Shown here: in pieces, positions 22,456 through 47,935 of the stretch
How positions within the stretch are numbered: position 1 is the first letter of the stretch
Layout of the letters: each line of letters opens with the position of its first letter
Translations under genes and position numbers: made by a program
The notes under the pieces: model-generated
Told to the model about the DNA's origin: nothing
Database searches by the model: none
What the model saw: only the letters and a program-made list of their open reading frames with translations
Assembly: GCA_031400955.1 (NCBI GenBank)
Contig: JANNQW010000167.1
Span: forward strand, 1 to 51,915
Reading direction: 5' to 3'
Length of the DNA: 51,915 nucleotides
Origin: Verrucomicrobiota bacterium
GTDB lineage: Bacteria > Verrucomicrobiota > Verrucomicrobiia > Verrucomicrobiales > Verrucomicrobiaceae

Positions 22456-23229
22456 CTAGGATTTCTTGGCGACGGGTGTCGCTTGCTTTTGTTCCGCTTT
22501 CGAATCCTTGGCCGGTGTCGTCGCCGCAGTCCCGCTCTGCGCTGGCGCGGGCTGGGGACTGCTGCTGCTCAAAGGTTGGCCGGGCTTGATCCTGGCGTCA
22601 GCCAGCTTGTCTGCAGAATCTTGGAAAAGGTTCTGTAATTTCACGCGAGTAGCGCCCACAAATGGCTCGCGCGCCGTGAGTGCGGTGCCCAACCCGAAAT
22701 TTTCAAGACGATTGAGCACCTCCGAACCGATCTTATACATCTCGGCATTTTTACGCTGCTGGTCATCCACACGTCGCTGCAGCATGATGGCCTCCGATGT
22801 TTTGCTGGCGCGTTCGGCGCTCAATTTTTTCATCAACGCCACAGCTTCCACTTCGTGTTCTTTCCATTTCTTAAGGGACTCGGCCTGTCGTGAAATTTCT
22901 ACATCACGAGCCACGATGGATGAAGCCTGCTCGGCCGCCTTCTTCTCCGCCTCGGCCTTGTCGGTCGCGCTTTGCTTGATGAGGTCGGCAACTTTTCTTT
23001 CCAAGGCTTTAATCTTGTCGTCCTGCTCTTTGTTTTTCAGTTCGAGCTCGGTTTGTGCCGCCTGCAAGGTGGCCTTGTCCGTCTCCACGGTGCGGAGCTG
23101 GATCATGGTGTTGCGCAAGGATTCGCGCAGCTTCTTGTTGGCCTCGGCGGCGGGATCGGCGCCACTGGCGGCAAAGCTTGCGGCCGCAGCAAACACGAGA
23201 GGGATGATAATTAGGGAGCGATGGATCAT
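22456..23229 (-). CDS. Secreted/periplasmic coiled-coil protein, unknown function
   Basis: Signal peptide MIHRSLIIIPLVFAAAASFAASG, a long K/E/A/Q-rich heptad-like region and a low-complexity P/A/S tail. The start lies 2 nt after the porin stop. Confidence 0.65.
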   Translation of the reverse strand: MIHRSLIIIPLVFAAAASFAASGADPAAEANKKLRESLRNTMIQLRTVETDKATLQAAQTELELKNKEQDDKIKALERKVADLIKQSATDKAEAEKKAAEQASSIVARDVEISRQAESLKKWKEHEVEAVALMKKLSAERASKTSEAIMLQRRVDDQQRKNAEMYKIGSEVLNRLENFGLGTALTAREPFVGATRVKLQNLFQDSADKLADARIKPGQPLSSSSPQPAPAQSGTAATTPAKDSKAEQKQATPVAKKS

Positions 23230-23231
23230 GA

Positions 23232-25187
23232 CTAGAATTTGGCGGTGAGGTCGAGCAGGAGGACGTCGCTTTTTAATGGAGGTCCGGCGATTTGATTAGC
23301 ACCCATCCAGCGCACGCCAAATTTCACACGCGGTGAAAGTGCGAGGGAGCCGCCCACGGTGTAACCTTCGATATTGGTGCCGCCCGCCCCGAAATCCGAG
23401 TCCGTGAAGGCGTCAACTACTGCATCGGACTCCACGTAACGGTAACCGAAGGTCATGCTCCAGTCCCCCGCTCTTTCGAAAACAGGTTTGCCGACAATAA
23501 GGGCGAGGTTCCACGCGGTGCCTCCACCATCATACTCGCCCACTGGGGCCGGGGCGGTGGGGTCGGGAGTTGTTGTTGGATCCGGAGTCGCGACCACCGG
23601 CAGCGGGCCGCGATTGTTAAGCGCCACCTGATTGATGTCGTCCTTGTTCCACGCCAGGTTCTTGGCGTATTCGCCGAGGAATGAAATCTGAACGGGCTCG
23701 AAGTAGTTCAGATTGATGCGCCCGCTATAGGAGAGCACCTCGAAAGGTGAAGCCAGTCCGAAGTATTGAAACTGATTGCTGGTGCCGAAGTTGTTGAGCG
23801 CGTCCGGCACGATGTTGCGGATCGCACGGTAAGTGTTGCCTCGCTGCGCGAACGACTGGCGTGTGCCGTCGGTGTTGCTCTGGTCTTGGGAGTTGAATGG
23901 AATGAAGGGATCGGAAAGCTTGCCCTCAACATCCTGGAAATTGTAGTAAGCCACGGCCCCCGTCGCATCCACGTGGCGCGATAACTTCAAGTCGAGACCA
24001 ATCTGAGCGGCGTAAAGCCACTTATCCGTGCTTTCATACTTGACAGGCTGGTTGGTGGCGAAGTTGAAGTCGGTGTTGAAGATCGGAAAAAGACCAGCGG
24101 TAAAGAAGGGTGTCACGCCCTTGAAGATTCGGTAGCGACCCTTGAGGGCCAGACCGTCAAAGCCCACGTCTTCATCCCAGATCAATTCGCTGGTGGAAAA
24201 GAACGGATTGTCGAAGCGGCCGAATGCCATTGAGAGCTGGCCGCGCGAATCGTGCGGAACCTTGACGGTGCGCAGTGTTTTTCCATCGGCATCCAGTTCA
24301 GTTTTCTCGGTGTATCGCACACCGCCGCCGATTTCATACTTGATGAATCCGCGATCGAGCCACAGGGAATATTTGCTGAAGTTGCCGCCCTGGGCATTGT
24401 TGGCCTGGCCAAGTGTTTGATTCATGGACACGGGGCTATTACTGTCGCCGGTGCCGATGCGAATGCCGGCGAACCAGCCGTTCTCCAGGTTGGCATCCGC
24501 GCCCAAGCGAGCGCGCAGGCGGAGACGCTGACGCTGCTGGTCAACATTGTATTGCGGCGAAAAATTCGTGCCGCTGACATCGAAAGGTGAACCGGTGTTG
24601 ATCGAGTTGAAGTTGGGGAAAGCGCCGGTGTTGTCATTTCCCACTGGGAAGAAGCTGGACTCATAGCGGAGCCGGACGTCGCCGAAGAGTTTGATTCGCT
24701 TGGTCCAGTCCGGCACTTCCTTCGGTGCGGCCCAGCCTTCGCGCTTCGCTTGCGACATCACATCGGCTTTCAATTCATTACGGATCTGTTCCTTCACGAC
24801 TTCAGGGACATAAGTCACTCGCACCGCGCCATCGGCATCCGGACTGGGAACGCCTGCGGCCTGAGCTTGGGCCAGCGCGGCCTCGTCCTCGGCCTGCTGA
24901 ATCATTTCACCAGCCTCAACTTCGGTCAGAACTTTTTTCTTCACGAGAATGCGGATCAAGTTGATCGTGGCATTCGGCGATGGCGCGGCGGGAGCCGTCT
25001 GGGCCACGGGATTGGATGGTGCGGTGTCGAACAGCAGCGGCGAAGGCCCGTCGTTCCCGGCTTGCGCGATCAGCGGCGGGTCGCCTGAACCCGGGAGATT
25101 GAGCAAGGGCTTTTCAGCACCGGGCAGGAGCGGCGCACCGCCAAGGCAGGCGAGCAGGAGGGTAAGAGATATTTTCCGGTTCAGCAT
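23232..25187 (-). CDS. Outer-membrane beta-barrel protein (putative porin family)
   Basis: Signal peptide, an N-terminal helical segment (INLIRILVKKKVLTEVEAGEMIQQAEDEAA), alternating aromatic/glycine beta-strand pattern and a C-terminal …LLLDLTAKF ending in Phe. Confidence 0.65.
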   Translation of the reverse strand: MLNRKISLTLLLACLGGAPLLPGAEKPLLNLPGSGDPPLIAQAGNDGPSPLLFDTAPSNPVAQTAPAAPSPNATINLIRILVKKKVLTEVEAGEMIQQAEDEAALAQAQAAGVPSPDADGAVRVTYVPEVVKEQIRNELKADVMSQAKREGWAAPKEVPDWTKRIKLFGDVRLRYESSFFPVGNDNTGAFPNFNSINTGSPFDVSGTNFSPQYNVDQQRQRLRLRARLGADANLENGWFAGIRIGTGDSNSPVSMNQTLGQANNAQGGNFSKYSLWLDRGFIKYEIGGGVRYTEKTELDADGKTLRTVKVPHDSRGQLSMAFGRFDNPFFSTSELIWDEDVGFDGLALKGRYRIFKGVTPFFTAGLFPIFNTDFNFATNQPVKYESTDKWLYAAQIGLDLKLSRHVDATGAVAYYNFQDVEGKLSDPFIPFNSQDQSNTDGTRQSFAQRGNTYRAIRNIVPDALNNFGTSNQFQYFGLASPFEVLSYSGRINLNYFEPVQISFLGEYAKNLAWNKDDINQVALNNRGPLPVVATPDPTTTPDPTAPAPVGEYDGGGTAWNLALIVGKPVFERAGDWSMTFGYRYVESDAVVDAFTDSDFGAGGTNIEGYTVGGSLALSPRVKFGVRWMGANQIAGPPLKSDVLLLDLTAKF

Positions 25188-25206: not shown

Positions 25207-25932
25207 TCACGACTTGCGCGCCGTGATGCGCAGATTGATCGGCATCGGCATGTCGGATGGCGGGGCCTCTTGAAGTTGCAAGCCTGTGAGCACTTCATTG
25301 GCGATGGCGCTGTCCAGTGAGTTGTCTCCGCTGGATCCAACCAGGCTGGCACGGGTAATGCGCCCGCTGCTGTCGGCCCAGATGCGAACTTGCAGGGAGA
25401 GGCTTGCATTGCGGGTGCGCCCGTTGCGTCGCAGGGCGTCGGCGACGCGCGACTGCACTTGTCCGGCATACCAGCCAAACTTGCTGCCGCCGCGACCGCC
25501 ACCACCCGTGCCGGTGCCGGTGCCGCCAGTGCCGCCTTTATAGGCGCCGAGACCGAATCCGTCGGGTGGACCACTGCCAACGTTGTTGGTGCCGATGGGC
25601 GGAGGATCATCCGAAGGCTTGGGTTCCGGTGCTTTGACTTCATCCGGCTTCACTTCCTCCTGCGCAATCATCTCCTGTTTCTTCTCCTCCGGTGGCGGCT
25701 CCACTTTCGGTTGTGGTGGCGGCGGTGGTGGTGGAGGAGGTATTGGTGGCAGGGTGATTGTCATCATGCGCTCGACCGGCCGCGTCGGAGCGGAGGGTCC
25801 ACCTTTGAACTGCGAAGCGGCATAGCCAATGCCGCCCACTGCCACAATAACAATTAATGGCAACAGCCAGCGATGTTTTTGGAAGAGGCTGTCCTCATCA
25901 AAATCCTCATCAGAGTGGCGGTGCTTGCTCAT
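25207..25932 (-). CDS. tonB: TonB-family energy transducer
   Basis: N-terminal TM anchor (WLLPLIVIVAVGGIGYAA), proline-rich spacer (PPIPPPPPPPPPQPKVEPPPEEKK) and a C-terminal TonB_C-like domain (…RIWADSSGRITRASLVGSSGDNSLDSAIANEV…). Confidence 0.8.
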   Translation of the reverse strand: MSKHRHSDEDFDEDSLFQKHRWLLPLIVIVAVGGIGYAASQFKGGPSAPTRPVERMMTITLPPIPPPPPPPPPQPKVEPPPEEKKQEMIAQEEVKPDEVKAPEPKPSDDPPPIGTNNVGSGPPDGFGLGAYKGGTGGTGTGTGGGGRGGSKFGWYAGQVQSRVADALRRNGRTRNASLSLQVRIWADSSGRITRASLVGSSGDNSLDSAIANEVLTGLQLQEAPPSDMPMPINLRITARKS

Positions 25933-25960: not shown

Positions 25961-26368
25961 TTATTTGCCGGCCGGCTTGGTGGCCAGACCGACTTGCGTG
26001 ATGCCGACGCGACCGAGCACATCGAGCACATCCATGATGGCCTGGTATTGCGTCTGGCTGTCGCCGCGCACGACCGCCGGAAAGTCAGGGGTCGAGGCTT
26101 TCACCGCGGCGAGCTTCTGTTCCAGATCGGCCAGCGATGAAACTTGCGTGGCGTTGAGCTTGATCGTGCCTTGATTGTCCACGGTGATCGCCTGGATCTT
26201 CGGCTTGTTCATGTCTTTGGACGCAGCGGCGCTGGCCTTGGGCAGGTTCACCTTCACGCCCTGGACGCCGGCCGTGGTCATGATGATGAAAATCAACAAC
26301 AGCACCAGGTAGAGATCTACCATCGGTGTGACGTTGATGTCGTCGTATGATTTATTATCGGCCTGCAT
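25961..26368 (-). CDS. exbD: ExbD/TolR-family biopolymer transport protein
   Basis: 135 aa. INVTPMVDLYLVLLLIFIIMTT followed by a periplasmic domain. The start lies 2 nt after the exbB-like stop. Confidence 0.9.
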   Translation of the reverse strand: MQADNKSYDDINVTPMVDLYLVLLLIFIIMTTAGVQGVKVNLPKASAAASKDMNKPKIQAITVDNQGTIKLNATQVSSLADLEQKLAAVKASTPDFPAVVRGDSQTQYQAIMDVLDVLGRVGITQVGLATKPAGK

Positions 26369-26370
26369 GG

Positions 26371-30083: not shown

Positions 30084-30310
30084 ATAAATAATTATGTAGC
30101 CGTTTTCACGATGATGATTTTATGTTTTGGGAGAAATTTTGGAGCGCACGCGCCCTCGCGAAGGGTCAAACGCAAACCTTTGATGCCATATCGTCAGGGG
30201 ACATCCGCAGGAAGTCCGCGAAGGCGCAGACTTCTGCACGCGGGGCGCGTGCGCTCCAAGAACTCCAACGCACACGCCACCTGGCTACGAATTTATTTAA
30301 ACCGCTCTAA
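30084..30310 (+). repeat. MITE-like structured repeat, copy 1 (~227 bp)
   Basis: Near-identical to 31321-31574. It has an internal perfect 17-bp inverted repeat, ttggagcgcacgcgccc (30139-30155) / gggcgcgtgcgctccaa (30243-30259), and AT-rich imperfect terminal inverted repeats (…taaataattatgtagcc / ggctacgaatttatttaaaccgct). Confidence 0.75.
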
Positions 30311-30466: not shown

Positions 30467-31264
30467 CTACCGTTTCGGGGTGAGGCGATCTGCGGTGATG
30501 ACGCTGGATTTCTTACTGCCGACAAAGGATCGCGTAATCTTCGAAGATCTGATGTCGCTTGTGTTGATCACGCTTGAATCCGGGACGGCCACGATCTGAG
30601 TCGACGGCCTGTATTGCCAGGCTACCACACGCCAGGCCGAAAACAAAATCATCATCACACCCACACAGGCGATCAATATTTGCAAGGTTACGATTGGCCG
30701 TCTCGAAGGGATTGCCTTCCCGAGGGAAGTGGCCTGATTTAGGGTGCTTAAGGTGCTGATCTGGGGCGATGATTCGAGATACCGGATTGGCAGATGGCTT
30801 GCAGCAGCGCTTCTCTTGGCGTAAGTCTTGGCATTGTATGCCATGTCGACGTTTTCGACAATCGTGGCAGTCCCCTGGAAGGGCACGCCGTCCACTTCGT
30901 AAGTGTAGCAATAGCTTTTGCGCACCACTTTACATGCCTTGCCAGTCAGATGGCGTAGAAAATTAACCGGCCTGACCTCGATGGACCTGTCAGTCAACTC
31001 GGCTGTCGCGGATATCCAGGGCCCGCGCTTCAAGCGCATATCCTGCAATATACGCGCCACCCACACTGAGGCCATCCAGATGATCCCACAGGCGGCTAGA
31101 ATGCCAGCCGACCACACGGCGGTCTCGGACAGATTTAAGGCAGCAAGACAAGCCTGCGATCCGGAAGCATCAAACAAATTTGCTATCGAAAAGTTGAACA
31201 TGCGCCAGATCATATCTGGACAATGTTGAATGCCGAGTTTTTGAATGTTACTATTTCGCCTCAT
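30467..31264 (-). CDS. Small membrane protein, DUF3592-like (two TM helices flanking a beta-rich domain)
   Basis: TM (AVWSAGILAACGIIWMASVWVA), then a …KVVRKSYCYTYEVDGVPFQGTATIVE… core, then a second TM (IVTLQILIACVGVMMILFSAW). Start uncertain (ATG 31264, 31213 or 31201). The N-terminal 96 codons of the ORF-track model run through repeat copy 2 and were discarded. Confidence 0.45.
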   Translation of the reverse strand: MRRNSNIQKLGIQHCPDMIWRMFNFSIANLFDASGSQACLAALNLSETAVWSAGILAACGIIWMASVWVARILQDMRLKRGPWISATAELTDRSIEVRPVNFLRHLTGKACKVVRKSYCYTYEVDGVPFQGTATIVENVDMAYNAKTYAKRSAAASHLPIRYLESSPQISTLSTLNQATSLGKAIPSRRPIVTLQILIACVGVMMILFSAWRVVAWQYRPSTQIVAVPDSSVINTSDIRSSKITRSFVGSKKSSVITADRLTPKR

Positions 31265-31320: not shown

Positions 31321-31574
31321 AGCGGTTTAAATAAATTCGTGGCCGTTTCCACGATGCTATTTTCTTTTTGTGCGAGAAATTTTGGAGCGCACGCGCCCTC
31401 GCTTGCCGCCCTTCGCGCCCTCGCGAAGGGTCAAACGCAAACTTTTGATGCCATATCGTCAGGGGACACCGCAGGAAGTCCGCGAAGGCGCAGACTTCTG
31501 CACGCGGGGCGCGTGCGCTCCAAGAACTCCAGCACGCACACCATCTGGCCACGAATTTATTTAAACTGCTCTAA
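31321..31574 (+). repeat. MITE-like structured repeat, copy 2 (~254 bp, carries a 22-nt internal duplication)
   Basis: Same orientation as copy 1. Terminal inverted repeats are agcggtttaaataaattcgtggcc / ggccacgaatttatttaaactgct. There is an extra ttgccgcccttcgcgccctcgc relative to copy 1. Its 3' end overlaps the TAG stop of the TPR-like gene. Confidence 0.8.
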
Positions 31575-41200: not shown

Positions 41201-44200
41201 GTGCCGGATTCGTTGATGATAAAGTCCAGGGGCGCGCTAATATCAACGAGGCCTCCCCTGCCGCCAAAAGCACCCGAAGCCAGGACATCACCGTCTATCT
41301 GCATTGCCGTAGTGCTCTGGAAGAGGAGATACCCGCCGTCGAGCGGAAGGCGGGGCACCGTGGCACCCACCGCCTCGGCGCTGGCTCTTAAGAAAGTGTT
41401 GGCGGAAAAGGTTTCATACGTCGCCCGCTGCAGGAATGTGGCTGCCGGTGCCACCTCAAATCGGGAGAACAGCGGGGAGAGCCTGCGACCGCTGTTCAAG
41501 TCATTGAATTGGTAGCCCGCGACGTAGCTCGCGCCGTCGGGATTAGTAAAAGTGCCGGTGGGCGACCCGCTTTGAGGCGTGACTAGGAAAGCACCGGGCA
41601 TCAGGGCGTAACGCGCCGGCAAGAGTGTGTAAACCCCGGCCTTCAGCCCAGGACTGGCGTTCAAGAAAACGCGATCACCCACCGACAGGGAATCGTTCAC
41701 ATAACCGGGCTCGCCCGCCGCCAGGTTGTCGCTGTCCGCAGAGTCGTTAAAAGGCGCGAATGGGGCAAAGTTCGATTGATATTTCGGAAGAACGGCAAAC
41801 GCCGTAGACGACGCCAAGATGTCTGTGGAACCACCGTTCCCTTCGATAAAGCGATAGGCGAACAAGTCACCACCACCGCTGACGTCGAGGAGCGAGCCAG
41901 TCTCCATGACGAGGTTCTGGGCGGCGAGGTTGATGGCTTTGGATGTCACTCCCCCCGCAGTGATGTCAATTCCTGCGGGATCAATCCAGGAATTGCCGTC
42001 CGCGCTGAAGCCGAACGGGATGAGCAATTCCGCGCCGGTGAGGCCGTCCACTGCGGAGACGGAGGTGATGCTCCCCGAGAGGAGGCTGAGCTTTTCAGCG
42101 ACCGGAACCGGCTGACCGCTGATGGGGGCCGTGGGCGCAGTGCCGGTGCCGTCCCATCCGAGATTGATGCCGCCGATCGGCGCCCTGAGCACGCCGCCCT
42201 GAGTGATATTCGAAGCATAAATGCTCAGGACTCCCCCGGCGGAGAGCGGAGTGCCTTGCGCGCCCATGCTGCTAATGGTGACACTGCCTTTTTGAGCGCC
42301 AGCGCCATTCGTGTAATCGTAAGCGGTGATTGTGAAACGCGAAGCCGTCGTGGGATAAATCTGTCCAGCCTGCAAATACAAATCCCCGGCGATTTCCAGC
42401 GCGCCGTTCCCACGGATGTCACCGCTGGATCGAAGATCGGCGCGACCGATGCCCTGGAGCGAAAGGGTGCCTATGTCCAGCAGGCCGGCGTTGACATTAA
42501 GCACTCCGGTTCCGTAGGTCGGGGCGAAAAGATACTCGGAGGTCGCGCCTGCGGCATCGGTTTTGGTGAAGAGGATGCTTTCCTGGCTAGATTGCAGCGG
42601 CACTTGGAAGGGCATTCCCAGCCTGACATAAGGCGCAGTCAGGTTCACGATGGAATCGGCCTGGATGATGCCGCCGGATGCGATCTTGAGATACCCACGC
42701 GCGTCGAGGGAAACTGGTCCGGTGAACTTCACATTGCCGCCCAGCGTCAGGGAGTCGAAGCCTCCCTGCGTGAAGGTGCTGGCGGCGAAGTATCCCATGG
42801 CGGGAACCGCGGAGCCGCCAGAGAACAACACTGCCTGGCCGATGGCTGTCTCATCCGAGCCGAAAGGTACCGGAATGGTCAGTCCGCTTTGCCGCACCTC
42901 GAGATTGATGTCGGCGGAAGTTCTTGGGGTGCCTATCTGGTTGAATTTCCCCGACGAAACTGACAGGCTGCCTCCGACTGCGGTCGGCCCGCCGGCATGG
43001 CCTCGCAGGGTCGCATCAAGAAAAAGCAACTGGCCGCCTTTGAAGCTGATGTTTCCGCCGTCGCTGTCGTGATCAACCGGCAACGACAGCGACGCATAAA
43101 GCGCCGCCGTGAGTCCGCTGCTGGGCGGCACCATTGGGAGGCTGAGCGGACCGACGCCGAGAGCGTTGAGATTCAGATACGACGGATGAACATCCAGAAC
43201 ATCTGAAGTGCCGGATGCGTCGAGCACGGCGCCGGCGGCCGCGACGATGTTGCCGGACACGGAGATGTCACCTCCGGGCAGAACGTAACCGGTGCGCCTG
43301 CCAAACCTGTCCGGCAGCAGGATCGTGACTCCCTTGGTTGAAAGCAGGCTGCCCGGTGCCAGATACACCGTGGTAAATGCATTGGTCGGAAGCGGATCGG
43401 AGGTGGGATAGGAGTCGGCCCCCTTGACGGTGATGGCGCCTCCCGGTGCGATGACGGAACCGAACACCGCCACTGTGCCACCGGTGAGCGATACGGTGGC
43501 TAGGGGATCGGTCCTGATAAGTGCTCCCCGGCCTAGAACCAGATCGCCCTGCGAGAGCAGGATTGTCGAGTCCAAAGTATCCTTCAACGCGGGTGCGTTC
43601 AGGCTGATGCTGACAGGTGACCTGAGGCCCTCTGGCTTGAGCAGGGTGATAAGCGAGGGTGCGTCCGTTTCGAAGCCATAGAGGACCGCCAGATAATTTT
43701 CCGCGACCGGCTCGATTTTTGTTTCCGGAGCCACGTAAACGGAAGGGAGGATGTTGCCGTCCTCGTCGTTGAGGCCGCCCACGCCGGTCAGGGTATAGCT
43801 CGTGAAGCCTCCCTTCCGGAAGAATTCAGACTGCAGCAGAAGCGATTTTTCGTGCAAGGCGGAGCCGCCGATTTGGATCAGCGGCGCCTGCAATGTGAGC
43901 GCGCCTCCCGTCGCACCCGAGTAGCCCCGAAGGATGCCAGCTAGGGTGAGTGTTCCGCCAGAATCCGGTCCGCCTGCGGCATCCGTTCTGGCAATCACGG
44001 AGGCTAGGCCGGGATCCTGACCCGCCTTGATGACAATGCTTCCGCCATCACCATAGCTGCGACTGCCGGCGGTGCTGACAACCACCCCACCCGACACATC
44101 GACAACACTCCCGGCGGCAAGATTGACCGTAAAGGCATTAATGGACACATCCCCCCCGTGCGTGACTATCGGAAGACTCAATGGATCCGGCGCGCTCAGC

Positions 44201-46950
44201 CGGTCATCCACGACTAATCCTGCAGCGCTGATCCGGGCTCCTGACCCCAAGGTGACTCCGCCCCGGTCTTCATTGGGTGGCGGCGTAGGGAACAAACCCA
44301 CATTCGCTAGCAAGTTGGCCGTCACTTCCGGGGATATATTGTAGGAAAGGAGTGAGACCGTGCCGCCCGGAAACACGATGGAACCTTCAACCGTGATGTT
44401 CGAACCGGTGATGTCCAGCTTCCCTTGGGGCGGGCCTGCCAGCGTCACGCTCTTGGGCACCAGCACTTCCCCATCGGGGTTCTTCACAGTGAGGCTGGCA
44501 AAGCCACTGGTTGTGTAAAGTGAGGGCCGGAGAAAGACCCGGGCCAGCCTCTCCGGCGGCAGAGGAAGCGGATTCCCACTGCCGTCCAGACTGAAAGAAG
44601 GCACCGGCGGAAGGGAGGAGTCTTCCTGGAAAACTATCGACGGCGGTGTTGGCGAAACGTAGGGATAGGCGGGTGCTTCCCGTTGCACCAGCTGGCTCTG
44701 GAAGGTGAGAGTCAGGTCGCTTCCCTCCGGAAGATCGTCGCGCTGGCGAGGACCGGCGACGGTGTGACCCCAGAAGTCGCCATCCAACGCCATGCCAGCC
44801 GCTCCAATCGCCAGACTGCCGCCGTCTGCCCCGTGAACGTAGGGTTGCTCGTAATGCTCGCCGGACATCCAGGGGATCCGGAAGGTTCGGGAAATGCCCC
44901 AGCGCGGGTGGGATTCAGTGAACAAGCCGGTGAAAATTCCTTGGTAAAGCCGGTTCGGCGTGGCAGAGGCGATCTCTATCAGATGCCCCGCATACCAAAC
45001 CCGGGTGGTTGTGACGGTGCCGCCTCCATAGTTGACGAAGCCGCCGGAGACATCCACGACCGAACCGGGTTGAAGCACCACCGAGCCCCCGGCATTCAGG
45101 CTGACCGAGCCCCCGCCAACTGTCAGAAGTCCGACGCTGCGCTCGATGATGTTCAGATACCCCGACAGATCCGCTAAAGGCGTTCCATACCAGGTGCGGC
45201 CGTTGTAGACCCCTGTCTTGCGCAGGTCCACGGTGATGGTGGGATTGTTGCCATCTCCCGGCCGGAATATGCTAGTGCGCTGGAGCGGCGAGTCTTTCAC
45301 CTCCGCGCCCCGGAGTTCAACCGCTAGGATGTATTGGGATAGCGGAGCCGCGACATCGGTCGAGCCGGCGACGTTGATCATCGAATTTTGATCGAGGAAA
45401 ATCTGGCCGCCGGAATGAACGAAGGTGTTCGATGCGCTGGACGAGCCGCTGATGACAAAATCCCAGACACCCGCCCGGACGTCCACGACCGCATTGGGAG
45501 CGAGGATTGACGATCCCGGGGCCATGTGAACCACCCGGCCCGTGACATTCACCTGGGACCTGAGTGCGAGGGCCGTTCCAATCCGTGTTTCAGTGCTGTC
45601 GTATTCCGGCAGAATGCGCGTCACACTACCGGGACCGAACTCCACCAACCCCGTCGAGCGGTGCAGGAACGGGGCGACATTGGGACGCTGCACCGCATCG
45701 TAAGCGGTGTTGCTCAGTGCGTCGTAGCTTGCGGACAGGTCAATGCGTCCATTGACGGAAACGGAGGTGGTGCTGTTGATCGCGGCGAGCTGATTGACAG
45801 TCTTGCCAGTCATGATGACGCTGGCCCTGGGCGCGTCGATCAGGCCGGTATTGGTGACGGTGCCGGCGTATTCCGGTAAAAGGGAAGCCGGATCAAGCAC
45901 GGCGCCAACGAAAGCATCTAGGCCGCGGAGCGATGGGTCAGTGGAGCGATGGGCGTCGAAACCAACCTGGAGGCCGGCGGCCAGGATGGTCTGGCCATCC
46001 GGCGTGGAAATGGTGCCGGCGTTGATGACATTGGCACCGGCAAGAACAATGCGGCCGCCGACGCTCGCCTCCGAGGTCGGGGCCGTGAGCTGGGCACCCG
46101 CCCGCACAACGACATCACCGATCTTGCCGCTGGCCGGAAGCGCGGGCGGAGTGAAGGCGGGCGTTGGACCCTTGGAACCAGCCGGGATGGCCAGTGCACT
46201 GAAGAGGAACTGCGCGTCGGGATTGTTGAGCAGACCTCGGGTGATCAGGTTCTCGTTCAGCGGCAGGGACGAGGCCACCAGCGTGTGGGTGTTGACCTGG
46301 CTGCTGCCCCCGAAGATGATGCCGTTTTGGTTGATGACATAGACTTGGCCGGCCGCAGTGATGGAACCGAGAATTTGCGAAGGCAGTCCGCTGGGATCCT
46401 CGACCTTGTTGAAGGCGATCCATTTACCAACATCCGCTCCACCCGCGCTCTGGTCGAAGTCGAGCGTCGTGTTGCGCCCGATGTTGAATGTTCTCCACCT
46501 AAGCAAGGCCTCCTGTGTCGTCTGTTTCACCTTCACGGTGTTGCCCGACTGGACCGGGGCGGCGGCTCCGGTGGCGCTGATGAAATGCAGACCGCCGGTG
46601 GCGAGGCCGTCGGGCACGTTCGGCAGCGGCTGGCCCGGCGTGCCCAGGTTGCTGGCACCGGCGGCGATGGCCCGCGCTGCCGCCTGGGCGTTCTGGACGG
46701 CGTTCATTGCCTGCGCCGTGCGCGCGAGGGCGTCACGCGCGTTAATGCGTGCGCGATCCGAATCCGCAGCCGTCGTGCCGAAAGATGCGCGAGGGCGTGC
46801 CGTATTGGCGGGCGCACCTCCTCGCAGAATGTCTCCGCTCCGGCCCGCCACAGGCATGAAGCAGAACATCGCGGCAGCCAGAATCGTCGTCGCCCGGTGG
46901 TGGCGCAGTAAACCCAAAACTGGCTGCGGGCGGGAATTCAGATGCGGCAT
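35236..46950 (-). CDS. Giant TpsA exoprotein (filamentous-haemagglutinin family, ~3,904 aa)
   Basis: Signal peptide, then a TPS/haemagg_act domain (QEALLRWRTFNIGRNTTLDFDQ…PSQILGSITAAGQVYVINQNGIIFGG at ~46240-46530), then ~3,500 aa of G/S/T/A/V/N-rich beta-helix-like sequence. The start was moved to the ATG at 46950 (MPHLNSRPQ…), because the 47274 start overlaps the upstream gene. Confidence 0.9.
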   Translation of the reverse strand: MPHLNSRPQPVLGLLRHHRATTILAAAMFCFMPVAGRSGDILRGGAPANTARPRASFGTTAADSDRARINARDALARTAQAMNAVQNAQAAARAIAAGASNLGTPGQPLPNVPDGLATGGLHFISATGAAAPVQSGNTVKVKQTTQEALLRWRTFNIGRNTTLDFDQSAGGADVGKWIAFNKVEDPSGLPSQILGSITAAGQVYVINQNGIIFGGSSQVNTHTLVASSLPLNENLITRGLLNNPDAQFLFSALAIPAGSKGPTPAFTPPALPASGKIGDVVVRAGAQLTAPTSEASVGGRIVLAGANVINAGTISTPDGQTILAAGLQVGFDAHRSTDPSLRGLDAFVGAVLDPASLLPEYAGTVTNTGLIDAPRASVIMTGKTVNQLAAINSTTSVSVNGRIDLSASYDALSNTAYDAVQRPNVAPFLHRSTGLVEFGPGSVTRILPEYDSTETRIGTALALRSQVNVTGRVVHMAPGSSILAPNAVVDVRAGVWDFVISGSSSASNTFVHSGGQIFLDQNSMINVAGSTDVAAPLSQYILAVELRGAEVKDSPLQRTSIFRPGDGNNPTITVDLRKTGVYNGRTWYGTPLADLSGYLNIIERSVGLLTVGGGSVSLNAGGSVVLQPGSVVDVSGGFVNYGGGTVTTTRVWYAGHLIEIASATPNRLYQGIFTGLFTESHPRWGISRTFRIPWMSGEHYEQPYVHGADGGSLAIGAAGMALDGDFWGHTVAGPRQRDDLPEGSDLTLTFQSQLVQREAPAYPYVSPTPPSIVFQEDSSLPPVPSFSLDGSGNPLPLPPERLARVFLRPSLYTTSGFASLTVKNPDGEVLVPKSVTLAGPPQGKLDITGSNITVEGSIVFPGGTVSLLSYNISPEVTANLLANVGLFPTPPPNEDRGGVTLGSGARISAAGLVVDDRLSAPDPLSLPIVTHGGDVSINAFTVNLAAGSVVDVSGGVVVSTAGSRSYGDGGSIVIKAGQDPGLASVIARTDAAGGPDSGGTLTLAGILRGYSGATGGALTLQAPLIQIGGSALHEKSLLLQSEFFRKGGFTSYTLTGVGGLNDEDGNILPSVYVAPETKIEPVAENYLAVLYGFETDAPSLITLLKPEGLRSPVSISLNAPALKDTLDSTILLSQGDLVLGRGALIRTDPLATVSLTGGTVAVFGSVIAPGGAITVKGADSYPTSDPLPTNAFTTVYLAPGSLLSTKGVTILLPDRFGRRTGYVLPGGDISVSGNIVAAAGAVLDASGTSDVLDVHPSYLNLNALGVGPLSLPMVPPSSGLTAALYASLSLPVDHDSDGGNISFKGGQLLFLDATLRGHAGGPTAVGGSLSVSSGKFNQIGTPRTSADINLEVRQSGLTIPVPFGSDETAIGQAVLFSGGSAVPAMGYFAASTFTQGGFDSLTLGGNVKFTGPVSLDARGYLKIASGGIIQADSIVNLTAPYVRLGMPFQVPLQSSQESILFTKTDAAGATSEYLFAPTYGTGVLNVNAGLLDIGTLSLQGIGRADLRSSGDIRGNGALEIAGDLYLQAGQIYPTTASRFTITAYDYTNGAGAQKGSVTISSMGAQGTPLSAGGVLSIYASNITQGGVLRAPIGGINLGWDGTGTAPTAPISGQPVPVAEKLSLLSGSITSVSAVDGLTGAELLIPFGFSADGNSWIDPAGIDITAGGVTSKAINLAAQNLVMETGSLLDVSGGGDLFAYRFIEGNGGSTDILASSTAFAVLPKYQSNFAPFAPFNDSADSDNLAAGEPGYVNDSLSVGDRVFLNASPGLKAGVYTLLPARYALMPGAFLVTPQSGSPTGTFTNPDGASYVAGYQFNDLNSGRRLSPLFSRFEVAPAATFLQRATYETFSANTFLRASAEAVGATVPRLPLDGGYLLFQSTTAMQIDGDVLASGAFGGRGGLVDISAPLDFIINESGTGGGLGVVALSSSKLSSFGAESLLIGGRRTFGDTFTAVTVRAGNITVDNAGTALSAPEIILAANRGITLAPGSVIEQSGTIVSADTLVVTGALELTTVGQSLTFQRGGTPINFPSGTPGTDRITSTVGGVITAANGATSTLTAGVSTTVASGSSVTLNSGGTITFASGTGGAIPITIGDGALVRVSGDPAAQTSRTAVASSTQPNLVVGAGAILRGASLTLDSTYASTLASTAVLEAGAINLNSGQISMQFTNPGALQPTVGLVLAGGALGYLAAADSLSLLSYSSIDLYGTGSFDAQGSLALHTSTIRGFNQLGSMLQFNASSITIDNSANVPVLAAASPPDGTLQFNAGTFQLGANPVRIDQFNTVEINASSGVLASGAGGLTVPQALTIRAPLLTTARSATQSLIAEGGPVNILSITGGSASVAGGLGGSLTIRGTAVTVNSDVLLPSGLLNVRATSGALTVGGNLDVGGTQQTFFDVVKYTDAGEITLTADAGSVSILAGARVNVSAATGGGDAGRVNINSPTSLLSVAGQLLGVADAGTSGILSLDVGRLPGTVPNQGLISSLTSSIVGFEQSRSIRDRLDTLVTVDGTSKAHIFNLSVDAGSILVTGTIDATGDTGGTIDLKAFGSVTLNAGSVLTVKGQNFSNAGKGGAVFLEAGSQRNGVIDPTGFVNLLGAAGLLPASSIDLSVTTPGNVALGQLSGTLHLRAPQNGTLFTNSTDIRVSALDSTITGGSSITVEGYWLFDISNAAGATITTTVQNNVRTNGNQLIGVAGTPAAGYNTMFNRILGGNAGLSSSLVIVPGAEIINRLGDLTLGTTTSNSTSDWNLGNTTAGQRFRFGDRFVPGVLTLRASGNLNLFNTISDGFTTSIYTSGLLANNTLVPLNAQSWSYRFAAGFDPTAVDFHRVRSLTTAELAALPENRPGSLRLGKNGGANTATGAANALTSAAIGLPTATTYKYQAIRTGTGDIDIATAGDVQLLNQFATIFTAGVQVTDPNMGGTFDTPVPNMNGTFTGTLGAVQQNPPSAVQYTLAGGNVTLNAGADVAHYTRNVTTATGGSLIADSSREMPVNWLYRRGAVDSTTGLFAPSKYQFIGDVPSDIASTTWWVDFTNFFEGVGALGGGDVTVVAGRDVSNVDAVVPTNARMPGKTVGGAAIAPNAASLVELGGGDLVVQAGRNIDGGVYYVERGSGTLFAGGAITTNRTRSPSRGIIFSLTNPEIFAPETWLPTTLFVGKSNFSVGARGDVLLGPVANPFLLPQGYNNSYWYKTYFSTYSPSSAVEITSLGGDIDLRKAVTLPSTARSASSPVLFEWFRRELLLVTSGEVSASNSQPWLRLSETNVTPFRTVMDLMAPTLKATAFSGDINTVGNFQLFPSPTGTLELSAAGAIGGLQPTGTVTISGVSTRLWSASTFNLSDTDPAAIYSISQPFGYQNLFATPSAGGMRTTQNTFLNTFNDRFVETGATTGAAAVVQFKQTRHAPGVLHTGDSNPVRLYALGGDVSTLTLYSGKRAQVFAGNDIADIALYIQNTSEADISIVAAGRDIIVYNPSTPARIQSTSTGNLLNALQPAALAGDIQISGPGTLEVLAGRDLSLGAAASVGDGTGAGITSIGNARNPYLPFEGASLIVGAGMGKSFGLANSTLDFDTFIDQILSGPDGARYFTEYATTATGIGSTVTSVAELELLPLEQRNAIALELFYLALRDAGRDSATAGGYAAGFAAIEALFPESSQGDITTFSRDIRTKNGGSINILTPGGGLSLGASIVGNPDPPPGIVTEYGGGINIFTNDSVDVGVSRIFTLRGGNLVIWSSAGDIAAGASAKTVASAPPTRVLIDPQSADIATDLAGLSTGGGIGVLATVKNVPPGDVDLIAPVGVVDAGDAGIRATGNLTIAATAVLNASNIAVGGSSVGTPTAPVVSAPNIGGLTAAGNAAGASTSAAADAMKQSTPATAQTPVETPSIITVEVLGYGGSDDDDEEERRRRKKL

Positions 46951-47005
46951 GGATTGGCAAAAATGGCAGCGATATGTTTGCTTTCTCAGAGGGCAGGCGG
47001 CGTCT

Positions 47006-47935
47006 TCAATTCTTGATTTCTTTTGCCGCCTGAGCCAGCCCATCCTCGTAGGCCTTGATGGATGCGGCCCGGACCAGATCATTGAAAGCGGCATAACCAT
47101 ACCGGGCTCGGAAAATCTGGTCGGCCAACCACTGCGCGTCCCTCCATTTCTTTTCATAAGCAGGGTCGGCAGGATCTTGGTTGGGCCCGCCAATGTCCTT
47201 AACGAATTGACTCTGCATTTCTTGAATGGATGCAATCTGCTCCGGAGTCGCTTGAACCACTCCCGGTTCAGCATACCGGGGACCGGTCCCGCCTGTTGGG
47301 CTGCCGGGGCTTTGGCCGTTTCCGTCGGATACCGGCTTGAATTTCAACCCCGCCATGATCGCCGGATAACGGACGGGCGGAGCGGCGCTGCCCGGATCGG
47401 TTTCCGCAGCTCCGCGCTCCCGCCCCTCGGACGGTGCATTCCGCATCAGGAGATTTGCGTTGTCGGCAATATCTTTGTCCAGCTTGCGCAGTTGCGAAGC
47501 TAGGTAATCACGACGGGTCACCCCTGACGGCGGCCGCCACGAGGTCGATCGCATGATCGTCGTTTCAAGTTCTTTGCGCCGATCTGCGGCATTGGCCAGC
47601 AGTTCGCCACGGATGATATCAAGAATCGTGGTCTCCGGACAGCCGATCTGTCGCAGACGTGAGATGAATGCTGAGTAATCCTCGGACTCCAGGCTGCTCC
47701 ACTGGAACGGCTTCGGCTCTGCTGAACGCAAATCTGGCTTTGGTTGGTCATTTCTGGCCGCCATGGGTGCAACAACCGCTGGGGCCGGGTCGGCGGCAGG
47801 CGGCACGAGACGGGGGCCGTGCAACAGCAGTCCTGCCACCATCGCGCCTGCATTGAGCATGAGTGAAATCGCCAGCAGAACAGAGGCTGGACGAAGTTTA
47901 TTTTTGGCTGTGTGCGAGGGATTCATAATCGGCAT
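47006..47935 (-). CDS. Membrane-anchored hypothetical protein
   Basis: N-terminal TM (ASVLLAISLMLNAGAMVAGLLL), a Pro/Ala-rich linker and a soluble region with FQWSSLESEDYSAFISRLRQIGCPETTILDII. No family recognised. It ends 56 nt upstream of the tpsA start. Confidence 0.6.
   Translation of the reverse strand: MPIMNPSHTAKNKLRPASVLLAISLMLNAGAMVAGLLLHGPRLVPPAADPAPAVVAPMAARNDQPKPDLRSAEPKPFQWSSLESEDYSAFISRLRQIGCPETTILDIIRGELLANAADRRKELETTIMRSTSWRPPSGVTRRDYLASQLRKLDKDIADNANLLMRNAPSEGRERGAAETDPGSAAPPVRYPAIMAGLKFKPVSDGNGQSPGSPTGGTGPRYAEPGVVQATPEQIASIQEMQSQFVKDIGGPNQDPADPAYEKKWRDAQWLADQIFRARYGYAAFNDLVRAASIKAYEDGLAQAAKEIKN

Follow-up and report, generated by a model that had tools for sequence, protein, structure and literature searches.

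A two-partner secretion locus with its own TolQR/ExbBD-type stator and porin in a Verrucomicrobiota bacterium: a probable counterpart of the Pseudomonas aeruginosa pdtA/pdtB-exbB2-exbD2-tonB4 cluster

The Pseudomonas aeruginosa genes PA0692-PA0701 (pdtB-exbB2-exbD2-tonB4-porin...) have been described and are co-induced by sigma-VreI (PMC2729926; PMC7035377). They belong to the PhoB/VreI phosphate-starvation regulon and lie beside the Hxc type II system, which secretes the alkaline phosphatase LapA (PMC7035377). In VreI-induced killing of zebrafish, transposon mutants in PA0690, PA0692, PA0695 and PA0696 displayed no phenotype (PMC2729926), a null result that is silent on secretion, yet lends no support to the motor function proposed below. 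Two further points count against a motor for export. Ton motors classically power import (PMC2729926), and two-partner secretion (TPS) translocation can run without external energy in vitro, by reconstitution (PMC5422565), in agreement with the energy independence of type V secretion assumed in the preliminary description of this locus. In HxuABC, a TPS pair is coupled to TonB-dependent uptake (PMC5422565). A precedent for the motor proposal is provided by Myxococcus Agl-Glt/CglB, where a TolQR-type motor and proteins with TonB C-domains act on a non-receptor outer-membrane complex and control a surface adhesin (PMC9946355; PMC11761067).

The window analysed here comprises 51,915 nt of Verrucomicrobiota DNA (Table 1); the host is a bacterium of soil or freshwater. 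Six minus-strand genes encode, in order, TpsB, a DUF2341/LamG-ExbB fusion, ExbD, a TonB-like protein, a Porin_5 barrel and a secreted coiled-coil protein. The ORF table and junction sequences bear out the close packing first noted, with gaps of 13 nt (tpsB stop 28256 to exbB-like ATG 28242), 2 nt (exbB-like stop 26371 to exbD start 26368), 28 nt (exbD stop 25961 to TonB-like gene start 25932), 19 nt (TonB-like gene stop 25207 to porin start 25187) and 2 nt (porin stop 23232 to coiled-coil gene start 23229); none of the five junctions contains an intrinsic-terminator-like site. The preliminary description had proposed one transcript, which is plausible for these six genes only: tpsA, set apart by intervening genes and spacers, falls outside the tight operon. 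It does lie upstream on the same strand, as had been stated, but is not contiguous, being 5.3 kb away behind three other ORFs; the interval holds an FGE-sulfatase gene, a TPR gene, a duplicated low-GC segment of ~1.26 kb, and spacers of 186 nt and ~525 nt. The extent first given for the giant gene also required correction, in that tpsA starts at 46950 (MPHLNS...) and the stretch 47006-47935 is a separate gene.

Table 1. Features of the locus and its neighbours, in window coordinates (aa, amino acids)
Feature	Length (aa)	Coordinates	Strand	Basis
Secreted coiled-coil protein	257	22456..23229	-	placed like P. aeruginosa PA0697
Porin_5 outer-membrane barrel	651	23232..25187	-	Pfam Porin_5 1.9e-191
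Porin leash strand motif V122-R-V-T-Y-V-P-E129, putative TonB-docking site		24801..24824	-	alignment
TonB/TolA-like transducer	241	25207..25932	-	Pfam TonB_2 28.5 bits (cut-off 22), 1.7e-6
Stator B subunit, ExbD/TolR-like	135	25961..26368	-	Pfam ExbD 1e-26
Stator A subunit	623	26371..28242	-	Pfam MotA_ExbB 4e-27, DUF2341 2e-18, Laminin_G_3 1e-17
tpsB, Omp85/ShlB-type TPS transporter	561	28256..29941	-	Pfam ShlB 5e-18, POTRA_2 8e-14
TPR protein, occasional module neighbour	601	31571..33376	-	Pfam TPR_14, TPR_19
Double FGE-sulfatase-fold protein, between tpsA and tpsB	553	33388..35049	-	Pfam 7.5e-49, two stretches
tpsA, exoprotein	3,904	35236..46950	-	TPS PF05860 4e-18, TIGR01901 2e-18; DUF3739 1e-29
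TpsA C-terminal motif S-I-I-T-V-E-V-L-G-Y-G, putatively TonB-box-like		35287..35319	-	11/11 TpsA C-termini
Membrane-anchored protein, directly upstream of tpsA	309	47006..47935	-	no Pfam/NCBIfam match
Secreted PstS-like (phosphate-binding-protein-like) protein	429	48024..49313	-	profile of 8 homologues
PEP-CTERM-tailed secreted protein	318 as listed	49392..50348	-	C-terminus VPEPSRALLLAFGLGSLFLRRRR in translation

Pfam and NCBIfam scans recovered every domain proposed for the six genes and TpsA. The ExbB/ExbD assignment was upheld as far as the MotA_ExbB and ExbD domains are concerned, but the stator scores closer to TolQ/TolR: in NCBIfam, stator A reached 117 bits with TolQ versus 56 bits with ExbB, both under cut-off, and stator B 100 bits with TolR versus 56-66 bits with ExbD. 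Stator A comprises a signal peptide, periplasmic DUF2341 and LamG lectin-like domains, and a TolQ/ExbB-type channel; Foldseek matched its AF2 model to carbohydrate-binding jelly rolls (AbnA domain 4, BoNT Hc) and to TolQ (TM-score 0.7). Its ORF has an alternative start at 28350, while the ATG at 28242 yields the signal peptide and a length in keeping with homologues of 601-643 aa. Stator B keeps the transmembrane Asp (TPMVDLYLVLLLIF in translation), from which we predict that the stator is probably active. The TonB-like transducer carries an N-terminal membrane helix, a poly-Pro spacer and a C-terminal TonB_2 domain; its matches to TonB_2, and to TIGR01352 and tolA_full in NCBIfam, are weak, and PDB matches to TolA fall below significance. 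TpsB matches CdiB in the PDB by sequence (6wim, 8e-7), and the short, Pro/Ala-rich region before its POTRA1 holds no conserved motif among 63 orthologues. In TpsA, the N-terminal TPS domain (about 45976-46557) reaches 4e-18 only in a scan restricted to the N-terminus, and DUF3739 occupies about 35455-35790. The coiled-coil protein has no Pfam or NCBIfam match and only generic coiled-coil matches in the PDB; its alignment reveals a conserved C-terminal block (KN.ELY..G.E.L..YE...REPF.G..RVKLE.L.QDY.DKL).

The porin consists of an N-terminal helical hairpin, a variable linker, a conserved strand and helix, and then the barrel. We considered whether it could be a TonB-dependent transporter and rejected this: the AF2 model (pLDDT 78) shows a plugless, porin-like barrel with about 18 strands, its best Foldseek matches are OmpM1, MOMP, OprB and AlgE, and no TonB-dependent transporter occurs among the 50 matches listed. 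As the preliminary description had noted, a TonB-dependent receptor domain is likewise absent from the larger window ORFs scanned. Hence, a client of the motor within the cluster is needed.

Two motifs could serve such a purpose. On the periplasmic leash of the porin, VRVTYVPE is a candidate TonB-docking strand conserved across phyla; among 60 homologues (39-88% identity), Y126 and P128 never vary and conservation of V124 and V131 is at least 90%, and residues 115-124 have pLDDT <50 in the monomer model. A second candidate docking strand, PSIITVEVLGYGG, also conserved across phyla, is found 16 residues before the TpsA stop, after an Ala/Ser/Thr-rich linker of ~50 aa. It is present in all available TpsA C-termini, from Verrucomicrobiota and alpha-, beta- and gammaproteobacteria, Oleomonas (L087) included; a regular expression run over all ORFs of the fetched loci retrieved 10 of the 11, with one spurious match. 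The likeness of both motifs to TonB boxes is a judgement by comparison with E. coli TonB boxes.

A neighbourhood survey of 80 species genomes, with loci anchored on the porin, revealed a highly conserved arrangement. Upstream of the porin were DUF2341-ExbB (59/59 loci), TpsB (55/56) and the TonB orthologue (66/68), with ExbD in the porin block at 63/63; the coiled-coil gene followed downstream at 76/77, and TpsA was directly downstream at 62/68. The same module occurs at 12 loci of alpha-, beta- and gammaproteobacteria, carriers including Methylosinus, Klebsiella, Oleomonas, Burkholderia, Aquabacterium, P. chlororaphis, Achromobacter, Variovorax, Cupriavidus and Ralstonia. Homology of every component is detectable there, the coiled-coil protein included (E 4e-11 to 1e-23). 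The module resides on chromosomes and plasmids, with porin identities of 28% to 88%, and Methylomagnum possesses the porin and TPS pair without the motor. Since the order persists in 55/56 to 76/77 loci and in Proteobacteria, the adjacency is not chance, and the functional unit suspected from the window stands. Furthermore, the P. chlororaphis locus (ShlB / DUF2341-ExbB / ExbD / TonB_2 / Porin_5 / 214 aa / YbjN / rotamase / LysR) follows the published PA0692-PA0701 order, so that the pdtA/pdtB synteny named in the preliminary description proved correct; the system is indeed uncharacterised but not new, being a member of a cluster noted in 2009. The canonical Verrucomicrobiota order places tpsA downstream of the coiled-coil gene; the window is therefore a rearranged copy, in which tpsA moved upstream of tpsB.

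Taken together, conserved order and the P. aeruginosa match identify the locus as a rearranged Verrucomicrobiaceae member of a known, uncharacterised cluster. We put at roughly 90% the probability that this is one conserved, horizontally spread envelope system, the counterpart of pdtA/pdtB-exbB2-exbD2-tonB4-PA0696-PA0697, whose core is TpsB, a lectin-headed TolQ/ExbB-type stator, ExbD/TolR, a TonB/TolA-like transducer, Porin_5, a periplasmic coiled-coil protein and a DUF3739-ending TpsA. Gene content, conservation, folds and motifs are shown here.

It is tempting to speculate on what the motor does. Our best guess, held at somewhat less than even odds, is that a private motor controls TpsA export, anchoring or release through cluster-encoded partners; here we infer every protein contact, on which side the TpsA C-terminus lies and in which direction work is done. 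Driven by protons, the stator would work on outer-membrane clients that the cluster itself encodes, none of them a classical TonB-dependent receptor. TpsA would be exported N-terminus first by TpsB, and its C-terminal linker with PSIITVEVLGYGG would remain periplasmic, as do the C-termini of FhaB and CdiA. The TonB-like C-domain may dock by strand addition on PSIITVEVLGYGG and/or on the porin VRVTYVPE, and force from the stator may then gate the porin or pull a tether, and in this way control whether export is completed and whether the TpsA filament is anchored at the surface, held under tension or let go. Periplasmic struts may be provided by the coiled-coil protein and the ExbB lectin head, and a PpiC/SurA-type isomerase, in most relatives, may serve as chaperone. 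Rotamase and YbjN chaperone-type genes are present in most relatives and point to TpsA handling.

The main rival, doubtful in our view yet close in probability to the motor proposal, is an importer scavenging phosphorus, in which TpsA would be an extracellular capture or processing filament and Porin_5 the channel for uptake, which the TonB-like protein would gate or energise via the N-terminal porin leash. It would resemble Haemophilus HxuA/HxuB/HxuC in function, except that a porin-type barrel would replace the 22-strand receptor. Import is the classical task of a Ton motor (PMC2729926), HxuABC offers an example of a TPS pair that works with TonB-dependent uptake (PMC5422565), the P. aeruginosa cluster has its PhoB/VreI and Hxc/LapA setting (PMC7035377), and the conserved VRVTYVPE strand is on the porin. 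The gene neighbours fit as well: a PstS-like secreted protein is encoded two genes upstream of tpsA, a PBP_like_2 gene adjoins tpsB in Oleomonas, 'substrate-binding domain' genes lie beside TPS genes in Methylosinus and Methylomagnum, phoU adjoins the Methylomagnum porin, and a type II secretion system and a DNA/RNA non-specific endonuclease adjoin the Cupriavidus module. Such phosphate-related neighbours suit uptake at least equally well, and we count them against an export motor. However, the barrel is plugless and resembles diffusion porins, so that energy would have no evident use; the PstS-like gene occurs in only 10 surveyed loci and its family is not detectably that of the proteobacterial binding proteins (hhalign probability 0.9%). 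Moreover, no substrate can be named, and the chaperone-type genes and TpsA C-terminal motif are left unexplained.

Alternatively, and improbably, the TolQ/TolR/TolA-like module, leashed porin and coiled-coil protein (placed like CpoB/YbgF) would form a Tol-Pal-like tether, holding wall, inner membrane and outer membrane together locally at the anchoring site of the long filament, with no direct transport role. In NCBIfam the stator matches TolQ and TolR best and the TonB-like protein weakly matches tolA_full, and Foldseek places the stator on TolQ, but every Tol score lies far under equivalog cut-offs. The succession of the two stator subunits, A then B, the transducer, an outer-membrane partner and a coiled-coil protein parallels tolQ-tolR-tolA-tolB-pal-cpoB, the gene order of Tol-Pal, and the top structural match of the porin, OmpM1, is an outer-membrane attachment porin with a periplasmic stalk; however, Pfam and NCBIfam scans of the cluster detected neither TolB nor Pal, nor any domain that binds peptidoglycan. 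A more specialised role is suggested by the obligate linkage to TpsB/TpsA and by the conserved motif at the TpsA C-terminus.

More improbable still is signal transduction, in which the motor and its outer-membrane partner would form a split TonB-dependent transducer that mainly informs a sigma/anti-sigma pair about TpsA or the state of the surface. The P. aeruginosa neighbour VreA combines a transducer signalling domain with a TonB/TolA-like C-domain and has no barrel (PMC2729926). In Methylosinus, an STN/TonB-like protein, sigma factor and FecR are encoded directly upstream of tpsB, the TonB-like part being homologous to the window TonB (4e-13), and the Reyranella, Burkholderia and Variovorax loci have additional TonB-like ORFs at their flanks. 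Conversely, neither the window nor the gene-called Verrucomicrobial loci showed a sigma, FecR or STN gene next to the module; thus, over the greater part of its distribution, the module works without this pathway, and in Proteobacteria signalling is probably an addition. Finally, a chance or merely regulatory juxtaposition of a TPS pair with an ordinary Ton system serving receptors encoded elsewhere would suit the window, which alone shows adjacency only, and the several Ton systems common in bacteria, but is contradicted by the survey, with its order shared with three proteobacterial classes and the special periplasmic domain on ExbB in all loci, and is very improbable.

The FGE-sulfatase protein, nearest to GldK/PorK in NCBIfam (7.7e-33, under cut-off), is an occasional module neighbour, with a homologue adjoining the ExbB gene in locus L010; TPR protein homologues occur in L004 and L010. 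Homologues of the 309-aa protein lie directly upstream of tpsB in L003, L004 and L049, and one occurs in L039. The PstS-like profile matches PstS in the PDB (4ecf 1.5e-5, 4exl 1.1e-4), GRDxxSGTR aligning to NRAQGSGTR, and its gene is an accessory in Verrucomicrobiaceae and Opitutae-type genomes. The PEP-CTERM protein recurs with the PstS-like and 309-aa genes, with homologues in L003, L004, L039, L049 and L078.

The window holds a new and distant member of a known but unexplained gene cluster, in which a two-partner secretion (TPS) transporter is joined to a stator pair, a TonB-like protein, a porin and a coiled-coil protein. The six minus-strand genes are separated by gaps of 13, 2, 28, 19 and 2 nt, exactly as the preliminary description had it, an arrangement confirmed by the ORF table, the translations and the junction sequences; the family assignments made there are likewise all backed by profile searches. 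The ExbB reading frame is open back to 28350; translation from the ATG at 28242 yields a protein of 623 aa that begins with a signal peptide and matches its homologues in size (601-643 aa). No terminator-like hairpin was found in any of the five junctions, and a promoter-like site lies upstream of tpsB at 30109-30081. The proposed single transcript with translational coupling is plausible for the six-gene block only and does not include tpsA, because tpsA is separated from tpsB by long spacers, a duplicated segment and the genes for a double FGE-sulfatase and a TPR protein. An M16 peptidase gene comes after the coiled-coil gene, and neither YbjN nor a rotamase (PpiC-type isomerase) was matched among the window ORFs scanned.

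Positions of the features discussed, with the matches that identify them
Feature	Position	Strand	Match or character
TpsB	28256-29941	minus	ShlB 5e-18 (66 bits); POTRA_2 8e-14 (52 bits)
ExbB-like fusion	26371-28242	minus	MotA_ExbB (PF01618) 4e-27, 94.8 bits; DUF2341 2e-18; Laminin_G_3 1e-17
ExbD	25961-26368	minus	ExbD (PF02472) 1e-26, 93.7 bits
TonB-like protein	25207-25932	minus	TonB_2 1.7e-6, 28.5 bits vs cut-off 22
Porin	23232-25187	minus	Porin_5 1.9e-191
Coiled-coil protein	22456-23229	minus	assigned to no family
Direct repeat	30085-30310 and 31328-31574		~230-245 nt, 83-98% identity in three colinear pieces
361-aa ORF ('orf361')	30467-31552
Double FGE-sulfatase-fold protein	33388-35049	minus	nearest NCBIfam GldK/PorK, 7.7e-33, far below cut-off
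309-aa gene	47006-47935
429-aa secreted PstS-like protein	48024-49313	minus	no Pfam match; TGSTAxR ... SWSGS ... AFSD ... GRDNGSGTR ... WGYLH
318-aa secreted protein	49392-50348	minus	ends in VPEPSRALLLAFGLGSLFLRRRR, a PEP-CTERM-type sorting tail
Polyphosphate kinase 2 gene	2483-3448	plus	PPK2 3.4e-108
855-aa ORF	9083-11650	plus	no Pfam family at E up to 0.001
Small RNA motif	51812-51857	minus	Rfam Acido-Lenti-1, 40 bits, gathering score 37, E 6.5e-6

The giant tpsA is indeed present upstream on the same strand, with a TPS domain in residues 1-418 (PF05860 4.4e-18, 66.5 bits against a cut-off of 33.5; TIGR01901 1.9e-18) and DUF3739 at the C-terminus; the TPS domain was detected only with the N-terminus scanned alone, a scan of the whole 4,012-aa ORF having missed it. 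However, tpsA lies 5.3 kb off rather than beside the six genes, and the 309-aa gene previously counted with it is no part of it. As a candidate TpsA N-terminus that gene was ruled out, being a separate gene in another frame; the true start of tpsA is the ATG at 46950 and its product has 3,904 aa. After DUF3739 the protein continues through an Ala/Ser/Thr-rich linker of ~50 aa to PSIITVEVLGYGG and a short charged tail. The C-terminal motif was found in all readable TpsA C-termini (11 loci, both phyla); a regular expression for it matched 10 of the 11, with one spurious match among all ORFs of the fetched loci. As a lead, we take it to resemble TonB boxes such as DTITVTA or ETVIVEG.

Between the TPR gene and tpsB the direct repeat flanks a segment of ~1 kb with low GC (0.53), and together they look like a duplication or insertion tied to rearrangement of the locus. 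The 361-aa ORF was rejected as a reliable gene, its 5' part being duplicated intergenic segment and its start lying inside one repeat copy; it is probably not genuine over its whole length. GldK/PorK, the family nearest to the FGE-sulfatase protein, is a ring lipoprotein of type IX secretion driven by an ExbBD-like motor, and an FGE-sulfatase homologue adjoins the ExbB gene in one locus lacking TpsB (L010). FGE-sulfatase domains are common in Verrucomicrobiota, and the likeness may be coincidence.

The conservation of this gene block carries most of the argument. The ExbB fusion is 82-89% identical to metagenome proteins of Verrucomicrobia/Verrucomicrobiaceae and 62-67% identical to those of Prosthecobacter. 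The same block occurs in four relatives with called genes (L001-L004), and in L001, L003 and L004 the genes behind it encode a PpiC-type rotamase and a giant TPS/DUF3739 protein; neither was found within the 10-kb flanks of L002. The porin family comprises 2,211 clusters at 50% identity (E below 1e-3). A porin-anchored scan of one genome per species (185,579 species), seeded with a 10-sequence alignment as one of 25 sequences was too diverse, returned 369 relatives. The best 80 of these 369 loci were examined and are nearly all from Verrucomicrobiota (Chthoniobacterales, Verrucomicrobiaceae, Akkermansiaceae, Opitutae), plus Reyranella. All ORFs of the 80 loci were searched with the window proteins and neighbours were counted where the flank sufficed. 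Upstream of the porin we found TonB-like (66/68 loci), ExbD (63/63), DUF2341-ExbB (all 59) and TpsB (55 of 56); downstream came the coiled-coil gene (76/77) and, directly downstream, TpsA (62 of 68). A strict phmmer search placed a PpiC-type isomerase in 15 of 68 surveyed loci. Conserved adjacency, which the preliminary description had left to a neighbourhood survey, is thus borne out, and it is established that the module is one co-inherited system.

In Verrucomicrobial loci the genes canonically run TpsB / ExbB / ExbD (sometimes two) / TonB / porin / coiled-coil / (rotamase) / TpsA. In the window, tpsA and the FGE-sulfatase and TPR genes instead lie between the upstream trio of 318-aa, 429-aa and 309-aa proteins and tpsB. 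Since a locus whose porin is 88% identical (L005) keeps TpsA directly after the coiled-coil gene, the window is a recently rearranged copy.

The same module extends to Proteobacteria. Searching plasmid and chromid proteins with the porin gave 12 matches (28-41% identity), and eight loci were opened. Those of Methylosinus, Klebsiella, Burkholderia, Aquabacterium, Variovorax, Cupriavidus and Ralstonia hold TpsB, DUF2341-ExbB, ExbD, TonB, porin and a homologue of the coiled-coil protein, and most of the seven also have YbjN, rotamase and a giant TpsA; in Methylomagnum the porin lies near a TPS pair without the motor. Chromosomal loci of Oleomonas, P. chlororaphis and Achromobacter carry the same module. 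The P. chlororaphis order (ShlB / DUF2341-LamG-ExbB / ExbD / TonB_2 / Porin_5 / 214 aa / YbjN / rotamase / LysR) is the published order of PA0692-PA0701 in P. aeruginosa, where pdtB, exbB2, exbD2 and tonB4 are listed with PA0696 ('putative outer membrane porin'), PA0697 (unknown), PA0698 (YbjN family), PA0699 (PpiC-type isomerase) and PA0701 (LysR), all induced by sigma-VreI and phosphate starvation (PMC7035377; PMC2729926). The synteny described at the outset for pdtA/pdtB with exbB2/exbD2 is therefore right. The link runs through the P. chlororaphis and Achromobacter loci and the published gene descriptions; among the top 120 matches listed with the Klebsiella plasmid porin as seed, P. aeruginosa was absent and many other Pseudomonas species were present. 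Co-occurrence of PUMA3, TPS, exbBD and PA0696 homologues in several Proteobacteria was described by Llamas et al. (2009), and TpsB-dependent export is reported for PdtA/PdtB by work that PMC7035377 cites. The preliminary description knew of no mechanistic explanation for the Ton module there, and our literature searches found no later one, nor any mechanistic work on exbB2/tonB4/PA0696, DUF2341-ExbB or Porin_5.

Thus, this kind of cluster is already known (PdtAB/ExbB2D2/TonB4, 2009), and the window adds a rearranged member from another phylum. The present analysis contributes counts of conservation across phyla, a porin fold that is not that of a receptor, a stator closer to Tol proteins, and two conserved motifs as candidate docking sites. 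The P. aeruginosa cluster PA0690-PA0699 (pdtA, phdA, pdtB, exbB2, exbD2, tonB4, PA0696, PA0697, PA0698, PA0699), which belongs to the PUMA3/sigma-VreI and PhoB regulon, shares with the window the order TpsB, ExbB, ExbD, TonB, porin and secreted helical protein, and in both a giant tpsA precedes tpsB. Unlike it, the window lacks YbjN, isomerase, phdA and the vreAIR signalling genes, and has FGE-sulfatase, TPR, PstS-like and PEP-CTERM genes. The phylum differs as well, the window porin having about 34-36% identity to its proteobacterial counterparts.

The proteins themselves depart from a classical ExbB-ExbD-TonB system in several respects. The shared parts are a MotA/ExbB-type channel, an ExbD with its transmembrane Asp (kept here in TPMVDLYLVLL of the translation), and a TonB-like anchor, Pro-rich spacer and C-domain. 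The ExbB-ExbD assignment holds at the level of the Pfam families MotA_ExbB and ExbD, but NCBIfam scores favour TolQ (117 bits, against 56-68 for ExbB) and TolR (100 bits, against 56-66 for ExbD), all below the curated cut-offs; no equivalog-level match to ExbB/ExbD over TolQ/TolR was found in NCBIfam. Unlike classical ExbB, the fusion bears a periplasmic lectin-like head of ~350 aa. Its AF2 model (pLDDT 74) has a signal helix, two beta-sandwich domains (pLDDT ~73-96) and a helical body; by Foldseek the body resembles TolQ, and the sandwiches resemble modules that bind carbohydrate or are lectin-like. The TonB-like protein consists of an N-terminal membrane anchor helix, a PPIPPPPPPPPPQP poly-Pro spacer and a C-terminal TonB_2 domain (translation, Pfam). 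Its assignment to TonB is weak because TIGR01352 scores 23.7 bits, below the cut-off of 27.1; among PDB sequences it matched TolA only, and not significantly.

The porin, modelled with AF2 from a 60-sequence alignment (pLDDT 78), has ~18 strands and no plug. Its N-terminus forms a helical hairpin (73-110), a variable linker, a low-confidence segment and a helix (129-150) before the barrel, the linker exceeding 300 aa in some homologues. Within this leash V122-RVTYVPE-129 is almost invariant, with Y126 and P128 invariant in 60 sequences of 39-88% identity. OmpM1, MOMP, OprB, AlgE and OmpF-type porins are the best of the 50 Foldseek matches listed, and no TonB-dependent transporter is among these 50. 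Three porin homologues from the representative-sequence search (P0137, P0131 and P0123) carry an Ala/Pro/Ser-rich low-complexity stretch of 200-400 aa before or after the hairpin, so that a tether of great length can separate hairpin and barrel. A Rosetta-stone fusion partner was sought in ten long homologues (724-914 aa) and rejected; they contain Porin_5 only, the extra length being low-complexity linker.

TpsB has CdiB (6wim, 8e-7) as its nearest solved relative by PDB sequence match. Ahead of POTRA1 lies a short Pro/Ala-rich stretch that shows no conservation among 63 orthologues, and no conserved plug helix, TonB box or docking strand was found in their N-termini. In the coiled-coil protein a signal peptide precedes ~150 aa of coiled coil, and the C-terminal block is conserved; across phyla the protein is 24-42% identical. 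It matched no Pfam or NCBIfam family, and a PDB profile search returned only generic coiled coils (tetherin, keratin, SMC).

As the preliminary description stated, the window lacks a TonB-dependent receptor, no plug or 22-strand receptor Pfam domain being found in the ORFs scanned. That the motor lacks a neighbouring receptor of the classical kind is established, as is the different nature of the barrel linked to it; we therefore expect the TonB-like protein to have its client among the products of the cluster. We favor, with a probability of roughly 0.4, a role for the motor in controlling export, anchoring, tension or release of TpsA through cluster-encoded partners, each contact of which we infer. 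The proton-driven stator would act via the TonB-like protein on the porin leash (VRVTYVPE) and/or a periplasmic C-terminal tether of TpsA (ITVEVLGYGG), and by this route might govern whether export is completed and how the filament is anchored, tensioned or released. The coiled-coil protein, lectin head and rotamase could provide a periplasmic scaffold and chaperone. The idea that a C-terminus waits in the periplasm comes from the FhaB and CdiA systems. FhaB/FhaC and CdiA/CdiB share with the window the TPS domain, the ShlB/POTRA transporter and a giant beta-helical passenger; unlike them, the window has a dedicated motor, porin and coiled-coil partner, and its TpsA ends in DUF3739 and the ITVEVLGYGG motif.

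A precedent for control of an adhesin by such a motor is the Agl-Glt machinery of Myxococcus xanthus, in which a TolQR/ExbBD-type motor and TonB-C-like domains act on non-receptor outer-membrane complexes, with barrels other than TonB-dependent transporters, and control the surface adhesin CglB (PMC9946355; PMC11761067). Homology is shown only for the motor and TonB-C folds, however; CglB is a lipoprotein rather than a TpsA, and that machinery involves at least 17 proteins. HxuA/HxuB/HxuC of Haemophilus influenzae likewise couples a TPS pair genetically to an energy-dependent outer-membrane component (PMC5422565), but HxuC is a standard TonB-dependent receptor on the general Ton system of the cell, whereas the window has a private motor and another type of barrel. 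Against the model, no external energy is needed for TPS translocation to proceed in vitro (PMC5422565). We regard as unlikely a bolder reading, a proton-motive-force-coupled type Vb variant whose motor would grip a TonB-box-like strand on the TpsA tether and/or porin leash and work mechanically on the filament, finishing its export, retracting it, putting it under tension or releasing it.

The main rival, which we consider doubtful, is an importer that scavenges phosphorus; TpsA would be its capture filament outside the cell, and Porin_5 an uptake channel linked to TonB. An importer would accommodate the Pho/VreI regulation and Hxc/LapA neighbourhood in P. aeruginosa, the PstS-like secreted protein two genes upstream of tpsA in the window, and the neighbours of proteobacterial copies, which include phoU, genes of the PstS family or annotated 'substrate-binding', and a nuclease together with a type II system. 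An 8-homologue profile of the PstS-like protein matches phosphate-binding PstS structures in the PDB (4ecf, 1.5e-5; 4exl, 1.1e-4), and this neighbour is the one indirect hint that phosphate starvation may induce the window cluster. The porin barrel lacks a plug, however, and the PstS-like gene recurs beside the TPS-motor block in only 10 surveyed loci, all Verrucomicrobial by HMM search. Nor is the window protein detectably related to the proteobacterial binding proteins (hhalign probability 0.9%); the phosphate link therefore comes down to two unrelated PstS-superfamily lineages and the literature. Were the importer correct, it would define a class of TonB-linked porins tied to phosphorus scavenging.

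A Tol-Pal-like tether is improbable. Tol-Pal provides the nearest sequence families of the stator (NCBIfam) and the structural match to TolQ, and its gene order (TolQ-TolR-TolA-TolB-Pal-CpoB), ending in a periplasmic coiled-coil protein, is similar to that of the cluster. Yet the scores are below the family cut-offs, the module is linked to TPS genes, and neither a TolB beta-propeller nor a Pal lipoprotein domain was found in the cluster. A signalling role via VreA-type proteins, which do accompany proteobacterial copies, is more improbable still, as no such genes were found beside the module in the window or in the Verrucomicrobial loci with called genes. Chance juxtaposition of the genes is scarcely credible given the survey counts.

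In textbooks, type V secretion exemplifies export across the outer membrane with no source of energy, and Ton and Tol motors are seen as serving importers or envelope integrity. A strongly conserved yet unexplained coupling of motor and TPS is relevant to what powers type V secretion, a question of long standing. A TpsB and private motor block that is near-invariant across distant phyla, including P. aeruginosa, argues that at least one giant TPS family needs inner-membrane energy or force. The proton-motive-force-coupled variant, if real, would be the first two-partner secretion machine to be energised; conserved from Verrucomicrobiota to Pseudomonas, it would also give Ton/Tol motors a new class of client other than receptors. 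In Pseudomonas the cluster can be induced (low phosphate, VreI) and is amenable to genetics, which makes the question directly testable; the two conserved strand motifs and the ExbD Asp are precise targets for mutation.

Several further observations concern the neighbourhoods. In proteobacterial copies (L085 on Methylosinus plasmid pMSC49a, 7520-10776; also L079, L088 and L093) an extra small TonB-C-like/STN protein, an ECF sigma factor and FecR sit directly upstream of tpsB, the VreA-VreI-VreR arrangement of P. aeruginosa, and the TonB-like part of the extra protein is homologous to the window TonB (4e-13). On a Cupriavidus plasmid (L094, 1-6690) a type II secretion system (gspD/E/F) and a DNA/RNA non-specific endonuclease adjoin the module, echoing the Hxc system and LapA phosphatase beside the P. 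aeruginosa cluster. The PEP-CTERM protein, PstS-like gene and 309-aa gene form a recurrent trio, found upstream of tpsB in L003, L004 and L049. A further phosphorus-metabolism gene of the window, encoding PPK2, lies ~19 kb downstream of the last cluster gene and is probably unrelated to it. Elsewhere in the window are the 855-aa ORF and the Acido-Lenti-1 small RNA motif.
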